A stretch of 64,000 nt of DNA from Escherichia coli (GTDB lineage: Bacteria > Pseudomonadota > Gammaproteobacteria > Enterobacterales > Enterobacteriaceae), in NCBI RefSeq assembly GCF_003334785.1, contig NZ_QOWV01000008.1. One strand, 5' to 3'. A program made the position numbers and the translations under genes. Numbering within the stretch: position 1 is the stretch's first letter; the number at the start of each line of letters is the position of its first letter. Below, piece by piece: positions 6,446 through 20,493 of the stretch. Under the pieces are notes generated by a model. It was given only the letters and a program-made list of their open reading frames with translations, made no database searches and had not been told where the DNA came from.

Positions 6446-7951
6446 TTACTCCTGATTCACGCGATTAAGCTTGCCCACAGCGGCAGCCATTAACACTTCC
6501 TGGGTGGCCTGCTCACGAGTAAATTCCCCGCTGAGATGCCCTTCATGCATGACGATGATGCGATCGCTCATGCCTAATACTTCTGGCATCTCCGATGACA
6601 CCAGAATGATGCTCAAGCCATCGGCTTTGAACTGGTTAATCAGTTGATAGATCTCTTTTTTCGCGCCGACATCTACGCCACGGGTAGGTTCATCAAGGAT
6701 CAACACTTTGGGGCGTGTCATCAGACCGCGGGCAATCGCCACTTTTTGCTGATTGCCACCGGAAAGCAGACCAATTGCCTGTTCCATCGACGGAGTTTTC
6801 ACATTAAACAGACGAATGAAATCACTCACAGCCTGCTGTTCATCGGCATGCTTCAAACTGCCGCCAGCGCGGCTGAAGTAGCGCAGCGCTGTCAGCGACA
6901 TGTTCTCTTTTACTGACATGCCCAACACTAAACCGTCACGTTTACGGTCTTCGGAGATATACACAATGCCGTTTGCCAGGCCATCCTGCGGTGAACGGGT
7001 AACGACTTCATGCCCATCCAGGGTGACGTAACCGCTGGTGCGCGGTAGTGCGCCGTAGAGCACTTTCATCAGTTCGGTACGACCTGCGCCCATCAAACCA
7101 GAGACGCCAAGAATTTCGCCTTTGCGTAAAGTAAAAGAGACATCGTTAACGCCAGGTCCGCAGAGATTATCGACTTTCAGGCGGATATCTCCCGGCGCTT
7201 TGTCCAGGTGCGGATATTGATCTTCCAGCTTGCGACCCACCATCATCTCAATCAGCGAATCTTCGGTCAGTGATGCCACTTCGCGCTCAGCAATAAATTG
7301 CCCATCACGAAAAACGGTAACGTCATCGCAAATCTCGAAGATTTCTTTCATGCGGTGGGAGATATAGACAATACCGCGGCCTTGCGATTTCAGCTCGCGG
7401 ATGACGCGGAACAGGGATTCGGTTTCGGTATCGGTCAGCGCATCGGTCGGTTCATCCATAATGATGACTTTCGACTCAAAGCTCAGCACTTTGGCGATTT
7501 CAACCATTTGCTGGTCACCGATGGAAAGATCGCCCACCAGCTTGTCGCTTTTAAAGCGCAGGTTAAGTTTAGCCAGCAATTTATCCGCTTCGGCATACAT
7601 GGTTTTCCAGTCAATTTTGCCAAAGCGATTAACAAACTCACGACCGAGGAAAATGTTTTCGGCAATGGTCAACTGCGGGATCAGGTTCAGTTCCTGATGG
7701 ATAATCCCAATCCCGGCTTCCTGGGAAGATTTTGGCCCGGTAAATGTCGTTTCTTTCCCCAGCCATAAAAGCGTACCGGCATCGCGAGTATAGATGCCAG
7801 TAAGCACTTTCATCATGGTGGATTTACCCGCGCCGTTTTCGCCCACCAGCGCCATCACGCGGCCCGGATAGACATTTAACGCTGCGCCCGAGAGGGCTTT
7901 TACGCCCGGGAAGGCTTTATCGATGCCTTTAAGCTGAAGTAATGCTTCCAT
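6446..7951 (-). CDS. rbsA: ribose ABC transporter ATP-binding protein (duplicated ABC domains)
   Basis: 501-aa ORF with two Walker A motifs (GENGAGKST; GLMGAGRTE) and ABC signature LSGGNQQK. Confidence 0.94.
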
Positions 7952-16095: not shown

Positions 16096-17985
16096 ATGTT
16101 TTATCCGGATCCTTTTGACGTCATCATCATTGGCGGGGGTCATGCAGGCACCGAGGCCGCGATGGCCGCGGCGCGTATGGGTCAACAGACTCTGCTTTTG
16201 ACACACAATATCGACACTCTGGGGCAGATGAGCTGCAACCCGGCGATCGGCGGTATTGGGAAGGGACATCTGGTAAAAGAAGTGGATGCACTCGGCGGTC
16301 TGATGGCGAAAGCGATCGATCAGGCGGGTATCCAGTTTAGGATACTAAACGCAAGCAAAGGACCGGCGGTTCGCGCTACCCGAGCTCAGGCGGATCGTGT
16401 GCTCTACCGTCAGGCGGTACGTACGGCGCTGGAGAACCAACCGAACCTGATGATCTTCCAGCAGGCGGTTGAAGATCTTATTGTCGAAAACGATCGCGTG
16501 GTCGGTGCTGTTACCCAAATGGGACTGAAGTTCCGTGCCAAAGCCGTCGTGCTCACCGTTGGGACGTTCCTCGACGGTAAAATTCATATCGGTCTGGATA
16601 ATTACAGCGGTGGCCGTGCTGGTGATCCGCCGTCCATTCCGCTTTCTCGCCGTTTGCGTGAACTGCCGCTGCGCGTTGGTCGTCTGAAAACCGGGACACC
16701 ACCGCGTATTGATGCTCGAACCATCGACTTTAGCGTACTGGCGCAACAGCATGGCGATAACCCAATGCCGGTATTCTCGTTTATGGGCAATGCGTCCCAG
16801 CATCCCCAGCAGGTGCCGTGTTATATCACTCATACCAACGAGAAAACCCATGATGTGATCCGCAGTAACCTCGATCGTAGCCCAATGTACGCAGGGGTGA
16901 TCGAAGGTGTCGGCCCACGCTACTGCCCGTCGATCGAAGACAAAGTCATGCGCTTCGCCGACAGAAATCAGCATCAGATCTTCCTTGAACCGGAAGGACT
17001 GACCTCTAATGAAATTTATCCGAACGGTATCTCCACCAGCCTGCCGTTCGATGTGCAGATGCAAATCGTCCGCTCTATGCAGGGGATGGAAAACGCGAAG
17101 ATCGTGCGTCCGGGTTATGCCATTGAGTATGACTTCTTCGATCCTCGCGACCTGAAACCGACGCTGGAGAGCAAGTTTATCCAGGGGCTGTTCTTTGCTG
17201 GTCAGATTAACGGCACTACCGGTTACGAAGAAGCCGCTGCGCAAGGTTTGCTGGCCGGTCTTAACGCTGCCCGTCTGTCTGCTGACAAAGAAGGTTGGGC
17301 TCCGGCACGTTCTCAGGCGTATCTCGGCGTACTAGTTGATGACCTGTGCACTTTAGGAACCAAAGAACCGTATCGTATGTTTACTTCGCGCGCAGAATAT
17401 CGTCTGATGCTACGCGAAGATAATGCGGATCTGCGTTTGACTGAAATCGGTCGTGAACTGGGCCTGGTGGATGACGAACGTTGGGCGCGCTTTAACGAGA
17501 AACTTGAGAATATCGAGCGTGAGCGTCAGCGTCTGAAATCGACCTGGGTAACCCCGTCGGCGGAAGCTGCAGCCGAAGTGAATGCTCACCTGACTGCGCC
17601 GCTTTCCCGTGAAGCCAGTGGTGAAGATCTGCTGCGTCGTCCGGAAATGACTTATGAAAAATTAACCACGCTGACGCCGTTTGCCCCTGCGTTGACAGAC
17701 GAACAGGCGGCGGAACAGGTTGAGATTCAGGTTAAATACGAAGGTTATATCGCGCGCCAGCAAGATGAGATCGAAAAGCAGCTGCGTAACGAGAACACCC
17801 TGCTACCCGCGACACTGGATTACCGCCAGGTATCCGGTCTTTCTAACGAAGTGATCGCCAAACTTAACGATCACAAACCAGCCTCTATCGGCCAAGCTTC
17901 GCGTATTTCTGGCGTCACGCCTGCGGCCATCTCCATTCTGCTGGTGTGGCTGAAAAAACAGGGTATGCTGCGTCGTAGCGCATAA
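16096..17985 (+). CDS. mnmG: tRNA uridine 5-carboxymethylaminomethyl modification enzyme MnmG (GidA)
   Basis: 629-aa ORF; FAD-binding [10 protein letters not shown] motif. Confidence 0.96.
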
Positions 17986-18048
17986 CGCATTAAAAATGCC
18001 TGGTAAGCACCCGCTTACCAGGCAACGCATCAAGAACAGGTAATCACC

Positions 18049-18672
18049 GTGCTCAACAAACTCTCCTTACTGCTGAAAGACGCAGGTATTTCGCTTACCG
18101 ATCACCAGAAAAACCAGCTTATTGCCTACGTGAATATGCTGCATAAATGGAACAAAGCGTACAACCTGACTTCGGTCCGCGATCCTAATGAGATGCTGGT
18201 ACGCCATATTCTCGATAGCATTGTGGTGGCACCGTATCTGCAAGGTGAACGGTTTATCGATGTCGGCACCGGACCAGGACTGCCAGGCATTCCACTCTCT
18301 ATCGTGCGTCCTGAAGCCCATTTCACTCTGTTGGATAGCCTTGGTAAACGCGTGCGTTTCCTTCGTCAGGTGCAACATGAGCTTAAACTGGAGAATATTG
18401 AACCAGTACAGAGCAGGGTAGAAGAGTTTCCTTCAGAGCCGCCATTTGATGGCGTAATTAGCCGCGCTTTTGCCTCTCTGAACGATATGGTGAGCTGGTG
18501 CCACCATCTTCCTGGTGAGCAAGGCCGTTTCTACGCGCTGAAAGGGCAAATGCCGGAAGATGAAATCGCTTTGTTGCCCGAAGAATATCAGGTCGAATCA
18601 GTGGTTAAACTTCAGGTTCCAGCCCTGGATGGCGAACGTCATCTGGTGGTGATTAAAGCAAATAAAATTTAA
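18049..18672 (+). CDS. rsmG: 16S rRNA m7G527 methyltransferase RsmG (GidB)
   Basis: 207-aa ORF; SAM-binding [10 protein letters not shown] motif. Confidence 0.95.
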
Positions 18673-19276
18673 TTTTTATCAAAAAAATCATAAAAAATTG
18701 ACCGGTTAGACTGTTAACAACAACCAGGTTTTCTACTGATATAACTGGTTACATTTAACGCCACGTTCACTCTTTTGCATCAACAAGATAACGTGGCTTT
18801 TTTTGGTAAGCAGAAAATAAGTCATTAGTGAAAATATCAGTCTGCTAAAAATCGGCGCTAAGAACCATCATTGGCTGTTAAAACATTATTAAAAATGTCA
18901 ATGGGTGGTTTTTGTTGTGTAAATGTCATTTATTAAAACAGTATCTGTTTTTAGACTGAAATATCATAAACTTGCAAAGGCATCATTTGCCAAGTAAATA
19001 AATATGCTGTGCGCGAACATGCGCAATATGTGATCTGAAGCACGCTTTATCACCAGTGTTTACGCGTTATTTACAGTTTTTCATGATCGAACAGGGTTAG
19101 CAGAAAAGTCGCAATTGTATGCACTGGAAAAATATTTAAACATTTATTCACCTTTTGGCTACTTATTGTTTGAAATCACGGGGGCGCACCGTATAATTTG
19201 ACCGCTTTTTGATGCTTGACTCTAAGCCTTAAAGAAAGTTTTATACGACACGCGGCATACCTCGAAGGGAGCAGGA
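18673..19276 (+). promoter_or_regulatory. long AT-rich leader/promoter region upstream of atp operon
   Basis: About 600 bp non-coding AT-rich DNA between rsmG and atpI; the main atp promoter is known to lie upstream of atpI. Exact -35/-10 not assigned. Confidence 0.5.
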
Positions 19277-19288
19277 GTGAAAAACGTG

Positions 19289-20493
<1,205 letters not shown>

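Follow-up and report, generated by a model that had tools for sequence, protein, structure and literature searches.

The intergenic region between rsmG and atpI in Escherichia coli raises a simple question: what does so much A+T-rich, non-coding DNA do in front of the ATP synthase operon? The window, a stretch of 64 kb, is the E. coli oriC region. The gap runs from 18673, directly after the end of rsmG at 18672, to 19288, with the ATG of atpI at 19289 (RefSeq), and measures 616 bp with 35.7% G+C. Across the gap the G+C content is 30–41%, compared with about 50–55% in the flanking genes. Among the 52 intergenic regions that the K-12 annotation gives for these 64 kb, none is longer: their median length is 62 bp, and those that follow it in size measure 378 bp (oriC), 352 bp and 313 bp. 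The longest open reading frame on either strand is 30 amino acids. The original prediction, an unusually long, AT-rich region without a convincing ORF, is confirmed by these values. It had placed the end of the gap at 19276 (604 bp), which presumes GTG 19277 as the start of atpI. The codon at 19277 is GTA or GTT in most other genera, mostly with a 1-nt deletion downstream, so GTG 19277 is not the conserved atpI start and this boundary has to be corrected. Of 5426 complete E. coli genomes, 5425 carry the gap sequence, with 100% identity among the matches listed, and no annotated feature lies inside it in E. coli K-12 RefSeq or among the E. coli genomes listed. The region is single copy; a repeat or mobile element was considered and rejected, as the distal gap occurs once in E. 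coli. We think that the gap is probably a composite non-coding control region of the atpIBEFHAGDC operon that adjoins the 3' end of mnmG-rsmG and hides no gene. It is a real feature and largely a known one, the upstream control region of atp, mostly explained by known biology.

The promoter atpIp (P1) is located at 19170–19197 on the plus strand, with a −35 element TTGAAA, a 16-bp spacer and a −10 element TATAAT, and its transcription start site is at 19204/19205. Promoter prediction finds it as the sole consensus-level sigma-70 site in 17900–19800; it matches 11 of the 12 hexamer positions, has the top score and is invariant, being found in 100% of 61 species. A published set of start sites gives −84 and −50 only for atpI; the −84 start is 19205, with CGTATAAT named as the −10 element (PMC2760140 supplement). 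Counted from the old GTG start, −84 from the atpI ATG becomes −73. With a terminator inserted behind atpIp, expression of atpI, atpB and atpE falls 7- to 17-fold, and the phenotype is that of an atp deletion (PMC9277811). The motif, the published start and this drop in expression agree with the expectation that the gap holds the atp promoter. The locus is that of the classical atp (unc) promoter region, and the −35 and −10 elements, the start site and the role as main promoter all agree with it. The classical operon also has minor promoters, atpBp1 and atpBp2, inside atpI. As far as we found in the literature, the classical accounts end at the core promoter and leave out the 500 bp or so farther upstream, with the conserved blocks and their fixed spacing.

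Just 5' of the −35 element, the A+T-rich DNA at 19127–19169 is highly conserved. Two candidate sites lie in it: a Fis-like 15-mer, GAAAAATATTTAAAC, with its centre at −70, and TTATTCACC, which matches a DnaA-box-like consensus at 8 of 9 positions. Strong rRNA promoters of the rrnB P1 type combine an UP element with phased upstream Fis sites. Like these, atpIp is strong and growth-related; its A+T-rich DNA is highly conserved between −40 and −77, and the putative Fis site is at −70. The conserved region of atp is longer, about 500 bp against roughly 150 bp for the rrn upstream activating regions. Downstream of the start site, the atp leader (19204–19288, plus strand) is 85 nt long and about 95% conserved. 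It has two internal promoter-like sites, TTGACC-17-TCTAAG and TTGACT-17-TTTTAT. In the consensus fold, 19246–19258 pairs with the region of the atpI start codon, and no compensatory changes were found for this pairing. A stable leader structure was rejected, the E. coli leader folding no better than shuffles (z = +0.75 to +1.2). A 6-codon ATG reading frame in the leader (19212–19232) was also rejected, as its ATG is lost in several genera.

At the other end of the gap, terminator prediction gives a hairpin, GCCACGTT...AACGTGGC followed by T7, at 18760–18804 on the plus strand. It resembles an intrinsic terminator for mnmG-rsmG transcripts, with an 8-bp stem, an inner stem and U7 after it, a folding energy of −14.3 kcal/mol and z = −3.67; none of 200 shuffles folds as well. 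A simple terminator scan missed it because its loop is longer than 8 nt. Per-species folds restrict this hairpin to Escherichia and some Citrobacter and show no conserved terminator in the gap; in Erwiniaceae, rsmG is followed immediately by another terminator, of canonical form. Among the Term-seq entries listed, no 3' end falls within K-12 3922500–3923099, which corresponds to about 18630–19229 of the window and covers the hairpin and all of the gap but its last 59 nt.

The PMC8082180 supplement, on abundant oligonucleotides secreted by E. coli, reports an RNA 5' end at 18801/18802 on the plus strand. The coordinate given in this source equals a known start site in another, minus-strand row and hence marks 5' ends. 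The promoter-like sequence TTCACT-17-TAACGT ends 7 nt ahead of 18801, and a low-level minus-strand 3' end at 17991 indicates that antisense transcription through rsmG exists. The gap might then hide a small RNA, perhaps with a promoter at 18766–18794 and a start near 18801, or on the minus strand, or else a small protein gene. We regard this as highly improbable. The 5' end might just as well result from cleavage immediately downstream of the hairpin, and the published atpI starts, the Term-seq entries and the annotation cited above all speak against a separate gene. The sole Rfam 15 match at E ≤10 is Plasmodium RUF1, with 21 bits against a gathering score of 70, and is spurious. Upstream of 19128, neither strand shows a consensus structure; the lowest alifold energy, −1.7 kcal/mol, belongs to the CRP palindrome described below. 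Outside the promoter core, reading frames of at least 10 codons stay intact in 20% of the 61 species at most, and the 3-nt periodicity of conservation is absent (period-3 power 0.38, control 0.50). A small RNA was rejected on Rfam, sliding RNAalifold on both strands and per-species folds, none of which gives anything conserved upstream of the promoter, and a small ORF on the negative outcome of both the intact-ORF and the period-3 test. The suggested small-RNA signals are not supported by the covariance search, the structure search or the Term-seq entries listed. What is found is one promoter and no conserved structured RNA, an outcome that the original prediction had itself named as counting against it, and its more ambitious half fails.

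The best characterized element upstream of atpIp is a CRP site, TGTGATCTGAAGCACG, at 19029–19044, with its centre 167.5 bp upstream of the start site. It is TGTGA-N6-TCACA with two mismatches. As a bare consensus match it is insignificant (28 sites with at most two mismatches in the window, 26 expected), and its standing therefore rests on conservation and the literature. It is kept in all 66 species compared, 61 Enterobacteriaceae and five Erwiniaceae, and its distance to the promoter varies by at most 1 bp. In these 66 species the half-sites TGTGATC and GCACGCTTT are 99% conserved and 3–4 bases between them, in the 6-bp spacer, vary. In ETEC, ChIP-seq of CRP places its atpI site on the identical 16-mer (PMC4287617). 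Genomic SELEX in K-12 lists atpI among the CRP targets, and atpI promoter activity is reduced in a crp mutant of K-12 (PMC3105977), an effect that this site may mediate. At −167.5 the CRP site lies much farther upstream than in classical class I or class II promoters. Between the CRP site and atpIp, the block TTT(A/G)CAGTTTT at 19070–19080 is conserved in the species alignment, and together with CATGAT (19082–19087) it makes a weak promoter-like site, TTTACG-17-CATGAT, for which CRP would sit near −58. This site scores 7.4 bits in E. coli and is above threshold in 31% of species; the CRP site could instead serve this weak upstream promoter.

CRP-activated promoters with distant sites or upstream complexes include papBA (CRP at −215.5, acting against H-NS), malEp-malKp and acs P2. 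As in these systems, atp has a single good CRP site far upstream of class I positions with an activating effect, in H-NS-bound A+T-rich DNA and at a strictly kept distance from the promoter. The difference is that a partner protein and anti-silencing at atp are parts of a proposed mechanism.

About 15 conserved blocks, or phylogenetic footprints, are distributed over the gap. One of them, TGTTAA(C/A)A, is at 18713–18720. At 18754–18792 there are four elements, TTTAAC, TT(T/C)AC, TT(T/A)TC and TTAAC, spaced 11–12 bp apart. These TT(T/A)AC-like elements begin at 18754, 18766, 18777 and 18789, the autocorrelation of conservation peaks at lags of 11 and 22, and they are retained in Erwiniaceae. 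They are a candidate tandem site for a response regulator of the OmpR/PhoB type (ArcA or OmpR), a kind of site made of direct repeats of 5–6 bp at a spacing of 10–11 bp. The second and fourth elements could also be the weak promoter hexamers TTCACT-17-TAACGT mentioned above, with a score of 5.1 bits and above threshold in 41% of species. Further blocks conserved in the species alignment are ATAAGTCAT, AAAATATCAG and GCTAAAAA at 18817–18852, with AAAATATCAG the most conserved distal element (98%), and TGTTAA...ATGTCAATG...GGTTTTT at 18876–18913. The latter contains GTTAAAACATTATTA, an ArcA-box-like repeat pair that matches at 10 of 15 positions and may be a site for this regulator. The element ATGTCAAT is retained in four of the five Erwiniaceae, shifted by 11–12 bp.

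Another block, TATCA(T/A), is conserved at 18962–18981 with a putative IHF site, TATCATAAACTTG. It is homologous to K. pneumoniae −325 to −308, inside a fragment shifted by OmpR in EMSA. The EMSA on this homologous fragment was positive, with up to 20 µM protein on A+T-rich DNA, and when ompR is deleted the atp operon goes up by a factor of about 3 to 4. The OmpR site predicted in K. pneumoniae maps to 18964–18981, apart from the repeats at 18754–18792. Published work also notes candidate sites for ArcA and Fnr that are kept across Enterobacteriaceae, those for ArcA without coordinates. The ArcA, OmpR, Fis, IHF, DnaA-like and Fnr-like assignments are all consensus matches. Motif scans of the gap for Fur, Lrp, H-NS high-affinity sites, PhoB, Cra, PdhR, CpxR and NarL give nothing conserved and convincing. 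The additional regulatory signals suggested at the outset are present at the level of DNA, as the CRP site, H-NS-bound DNA, the homology to the OmpR fragment and the approximately 15 footprints.

The binding of H-NS is documented for the distal part. Promoter island 3920739_440 (atpI/rsmG), one of 78 listed (Panyukov and Ozoline 2013), covers about 18574–19013 of the window; it is H-NS-bound in two datasets and is of class K for H-NS. Oligonucleotides at K-12 3922927/8 are flagged 'PI' (PMC8082180 supplement). The distal gap is thus like other promoter islands in being listed and H-NS-bound and in having short RNAs reported. Promoter islands, which are defined by exceptionally dense predicted start points, have been proposed as marks of horizontally acquired, fast-evolving DNA. 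The atp gap differs in being core DNA, with its block pattern and length kept across two families, and a plain consensus scan shows no excess of promoter-like sites (1 consensus-level site, 3.1 expected from shuffles).

The length of the gap is 612–621 bp in 60 of the 61 Enterobacteriaceae species and 597 bp in the remaining one. Identity to E. coli is 66% in the gap, compared with 49% at the third codon positions of rsmG. The 211 variable columns of the gap are saturated (35%), and the blocks are 85–99% conserved. In 18933–19127 the length is practically invariant: over 61 species this zone has at least 1676 parsimony substitutions and one indel event. From 18964 to 19254, the anchors stand at the same distances from one another in every one of the 61 species. 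The rsmG-proximal 260 bp has 37 indels against the single one in 18933–19127, and the depletion of indels is judged from this internal comparison and from general knowledge of indel rates. In Erwiniaceae the stretch from ATGTCAAT to the CRP site shows a single change in length, of 11–12 bp, about one helical turn. Helical periodicity is weak over the whole distal region (conservation power z ~1.5 at 11–12 bp) and is clear only in 18740–18812. Fixed distances amid freely changing DNA suggest a spacing-dependent nucleoprotein assembly. The alignments show that purifying selection acts strongly on the gap, as a series of sites at given spacings. The near-frozen spacing of its parts across related genera is the one new point of this analysis.

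A different origin for the distal DNA is suggested by gene order. In other gammaproteobacteria the order gidA-gidB-parA-parB-atpI has the same flanking genes and orientation as in E. coli. Among distant relatives with RsmG about 50–56% identical, gidB-parA-parB-atpI is found in all four sufficiently long contigs, with 80–190 bp before atpI, and gidB-parA-parB is contiguous in P. aeruginosa. Locus L085, of the parAB type, also has a recognizable core motif of the atp promoter, TTGAAA-16-TATA(A/C)T. Enterobacteriaceae and Erwiniaceae lack parAB and have 600–825 bp of non-coding DNA, where the parAB relatives have 1.7 kb of genes and an 80–190 bp promoter region. A search for AtpI homologues returned close relatives only and is uninformative on distant synteny. 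The H-NS-bound, A+T-rich distal gap might accordingly be the decayed remains of parA-parB, now non-functional H-NS-coated DNA or partly co-opted. The best DNA match between one parAB region and the 66 gaps would fit: the parB codons for PGKYQPRK match 18825–18849 at 22 of 25 positions on the same strand, and the 32.8 bits exceed all 40 column-permuted nulls (mean 26.5, sd 1.7, maximum 30.1 bits). However, in 32 tests the sequences on either side of this 25-nt match are no more similar than shuffles, an nhmmer profile search for parB similarity reaches only E = 0.16, and tblastn with ParA and ParB does no better than reversed or permuted sequence. The match is seen in some genera and is probably due to chance. 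A non-functional relic is contradicted by blocks conserved at 85–99% where synonymous sites are saturated and indels nearly absent, and a shared position of the gap and parAB is not proof of shared descent of the DNA. We consider this origin unlikely.

The fixed length, for which there is no known reason, could also serve the chromosome and not the operon, with the A+T-rich region acting as a nucleoid-protein boundary or insulator, or as a landing pad for a replication protein. The gap is 3 kb from oriC (K-12 annotation) and H-NS-bound, TTATTCACC is conserved as a possible DnaA-box-like element, and in the literature a reporter at the atpI-gidB locus is expressed several-fold lower than at another origin-flanking site. 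We think this explanation very unlikely. The CRP site, the sole experimentally characterized site in the gap, probably acts on atp transcription (PMC3105977), and the most conserved part of the gap adjoins the promoter. The parAB relatives have just 80–190 bp here, and such an element is accordingly not general; insertions of 7 kb in the gap are also tolerated.

The control region of atp, on the reading we prefer, has five parts. These are the hairpin with T7, looking like an rsmG terminator in Escherichia; about 400 bp of A+T-rich, H-NS-binding DNA with about ten short blocks resembling protein sites, including the four elements phased at 11–12 bp and the homologue of the OmpR-bound K. pneumoniae site; the CRP site at −167.5, for which binding and activation of the operon are taken from the literature; A+T-rich upstream DNA with the single strong sigma-70 promoter atpIp; and the 85-nt, nearly invariant leader. 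We infer that the distal sites, with proteins on the other blocks, may act jointly on the promoter as a stereospecific nucleoprotein assembly. CRP and surrounding bending or bridging proteins would contact RNA polymerase via bent or wrapped DNA, or would counter H-NS silencing. Joint assembly of this kind would account for fixed distances between sites with freely changing DNA between them.

A stronger version of this proposal is that about 360–450 bp upstream of atpIp form a length-locked nucleoprotein scaffold, in which exact distances and helical faces control ATP synthase expression. We put it forward tentatively, as possible and short of probable. Its members, which are equally conjectural, might be CRP at −167.5, H-NS, a response regulator on the four repeats and factors on AAAATATCAG and ATGTCAATG. 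Selection might then have purged nearly all indels through the history of Enterobacteriaceae and Erwiniaceae while the linkers mutated to saturation, an account that we also regard as doubtful at present. More speculative still is the addition that part of the scaffold was recruited from a decaying parB gene formerly at this site. If true, the scaffold would amount to a bacterial counterpart of the enhanceosome, at a housekeeping operon.

Strains with large cassettes inserted in the gap are viable, and 7 kb is tolerated; the intact distal region is therefore not essential in the laboratory. The atpI-gidB gap has been used in engineering as a 'neutral' integration site, yet it is clearly not neutral sequence. 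The ATP synthase operon is among the most heavily expressed and physiologically central operons, and the literature that we found mostly presents its transcriptional regulation in E. coli as a single growth-rate-dependent promoter. The spaced sites upstream of atpIp could explain how signals of carbon source, oxygen and osmolarity reach atp expression.

The non-coding gap between rsmG and atpI corresponds to the control region already known for the ATP synthase (atp) operon: it contains the sigma-70 promoter atpIp, an activating CRP site and, further upstream, DNA bound by H-NS. It belongs to the oriC region; the window runs along the minus strand of K-12, with the gene order mnmG, rsmG (18049–18672), atpI, atpB onward, and a window position w converts to 3923057 + (18672 − w) in NC_000913.3. 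The window sequence is matched in 5425 of 5426 complete E. coli genomes, with 100% identity among the matches listed. The RefSeq start of atpI is ATG 19289, so the gap covers 18673–19288, 616 bp. This ATG is the conserved start and is preceded by GTG 19286 (within 19277–19291). The original prediction had placed the start at GTG 19277, which is GTA or GTT in most other genera, mostly with a 1-nt deletion downstream, and is not the conserved start. The gap had also been described as unusually long, AT-rich and lacking a convincing ORF, and this is confirmed. Its G+C content falls to 30–41% versus ~50–55% in the flanking genes, its longest ORF is 30 aa, and it ranks longest among the 52 gaps of the same 64 kb in the K-12 annotation (median 62 bp), followed by the oriC gap (378 bp). 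No annotated feature lies within it in K-12 and the E. coli genomes listed. The distal part of the gap is single copy in E. coli. In strain UMNF18 (NZ_AGTD01000001.1, hit H20) it is matched at two separate places, one piece being 58% of the query, which suggests an insertion within the gap of that strain.

The promoter atpIp is located at 19170–19197 on the plus strand. Its motif, TTGAAA-16-TATAAT, is the sole consensus-level sigma-70 site in 17900–19800 and is unchanged in all 61 Enterobacteriaceae species compared. A high-throughput transcription start 84 nt upstream of the atpI ATG corresponds to 19205, with the −10 element given as CGTATAAT, while a second start at −50 has one read in support (PMC2760140 supplement). 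The atp promoter expected in the gap is thus present. A synthetic terminator between atpIp and atpI lowers atpI, atpB and atpE 7- to 17-fold and gives the phenotype of an atp operon deletion, and the authors of that study consider atpIp the main promoter (PMC9277811). The 85-nt leader, like the 75 bp that precede the −35 element, is 92–97% conserved. The fold of the leader RNA is not more stable than that of shuffled sequence. In the consensus fold 19246–19258 pairs with the atpI start-codon region, and this pairing shows no compensatory changes. Term-seq places an RNA 3' end, very strong and independent of Rho, at 19342 (+), 53 nt inside atpI (K-12 3922387), which implies an abundant ~139-nt RNA composed of the leader and the first atpI codons. 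In the minimum-energy fold the atpI Shine-Dalgarno region is paired with 19327–19337, just upstream of this end.

The CRP site, TGTGATCTGAAGCACG, occupies 19029–19044 and is centred at −167.5. Its half-sites are conserved, with a free spacer, in 66 of 66 species; judged by the consensus alone, the match does not reach significance. In ETEC H10407, CRP ChIP-seq assigned exactly this 16-mer to atpI (PMC4287617). In K-12, Genomic SELEX newly placed atpI among the CRP targets, and its promoter was less active when crp was mutated (PMC3105977). The distal part of the region, ~18574–19013, is one of 78 'promoter islands' and was scored as H-NS-bound (PMC3661553). A plain scan shows no excess of promoter-like sites, and the region is core DNA and not acquired. 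In K. pneumoniae, OmpR shifts a distal atp fragment, and deletion of ompR raises the atp operon ~3- to 4-fold (PMC10269446); the predicted OmpR site corresponds to 18964–18981. Conserved candidate ArcA and Fnr sites were reported upstream of atp in Enterobacteriaceae (PMC1805755). ArcA-like repeats at 18877–18891 and an Fnr-like match over the atpIp −35 element are found here as consensus matches only, and a Fis-like 15-mer centred at −70 and a DnaA-box-like TTATTCACC at 19144–19152 as sequence matches. Four conserved TT(T/A)AC-like elements, 11–12 bp apart, form phased repeats at 18754–18792; the autocorrelation of conservation has maxima at lags of 11 and 22, and the repeats occur in Erwiniaceae too. 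Such a pattern is typical of OmpR/PhoB-family regulators.

The possibility of small-RNA signals, also raised in the original prediction, fails: an Rfam search of the gap gives no match, and no conserved RNA structure is found upstream of 19128 on either strand. Since the gap also has no conserved ORF and no period-3 conservation signal, a hidden gene is rejected. In all four contigs of more distant relatives (RsmG ~50–56% identical) the order is gidB-parA-parB-atpI, where gidB is the rsmG position, with just 80–190 bp upstream of atpI, and gidB-parA-parB is contiguous in P. aeruginosa too. The enterobacterial gap therefore occupies the position of parAB in these relatives. The parB codons for PGKYQPRK match the conserved block 18825–18849 on the same strand at 22 of 25 positions, outscoring 40 of 40 permuted nulls. 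The flanks of this match show no similarity, a profile search for parB similarity gives E = 0.16, and protein-level searches for parAB in the gap stay at noise level; the match is probably due to chance. In one parAB-carrying relative (L085), the parB-atpI gap has, at 6650–6670, a 13-nt exact match, TGTTAACAACAAC, to window 18712–18724, which may be chance because Enterobacteriaceae conserve only TGTTAA(C/A)A of it. L085 and a second such locus, L093, carry DnaT and DnaC-like (IstB_IS21) genes immediately upstream of gidA (the mnmG position) and differ there from the mioC-oriC arrangement of E. coli.

Downstream of rsmG, a hairpin, GCCACGTT...AACGTGGC, followed by T7 spans 18760–18804 (−14.3 kcal/mol, z = −3.67). 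It is found only in Escherichia and some Citrobacter, and no 3' end lies at it among the Term-seq ends listed. Abundant secreted E. coli oligonucleotides have 18801/18802 (+, the atp strand) as their 5' end, within the T-run after the hairpin (PMC8082180 supplement); RNA cleavage could have produced this end, or transcription could begin there from the weak promoter-like TTCACT-17-TAACGT. In Pantoea and Erwinia (Erwiniaceae loci L068, L074 and L075) a canonical G+C-rich hairpin and T9 terminator stands directly 3' of rsmG; these loci have 100–200 extra bp after rsmG and keep the downstream array of conserved blocks. In the mnmG-rsmG intergenic region a perfect 12-bp hairpin at 17991–18024 has its T-run on the minus strand. 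Term-seq lists a 3' end at window 17991 on the minus strand (K-12 3923737/8, plus strand), so low-level rsmG-antisense RNA ends there. A promoter-like TTAACA-19-TATGAT on the minus strand (18718–18687) is confined to E. coli.

The rsmG loci of 80 species were fetched and the gap was extracted from 65 of them. Its length is 597–621 bp in 61 Enterobacteriaceae species from more than 20 genera (612–621 bp in all but one) and 711–825 bp in five Erwiniaceae. In the alignment, 263 of 616 bases fall into ~15 conserved blocks, with variable DNA between them. Identity to E. coli is 49% at rsmG third codon positions versus 66% for the whole gap; the 211 variable gap columns show 35%, close to saturation for the base composition of the gap. 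All anchor-to-anchor distances from 18964 to 19254 are identical in 61 of 61 Enterobacteriaceae species. On a neighbour-joining tree, at least 1676 substitutions but only one indel event fall in 18933–19127, and 2608 substitutions with 37 indel events in the rsmG-proximal 260 bp. Erwiniaceae keep the promoter, the leader, ATGTCAAT (4 of 5 species), GAAAATAT and the TTTAAC/TTCAC/TTATC repeats, as well as the CRP block, whose distance to atpI differs from that in E. coli by at most 1 bp. Their extra length adjoins rsmG, where the canonical terminator sits, and one insertion of 11–12 bp, about one helical turn, lies between ATGTCAAT and the CRP site. This strict conservation of the spacing of the parts is the only unexpected property of the gap. 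Most likely, CRP and other DNA-binding proteins would assemble on it in a spacing-dependent manner and act on atpIp.
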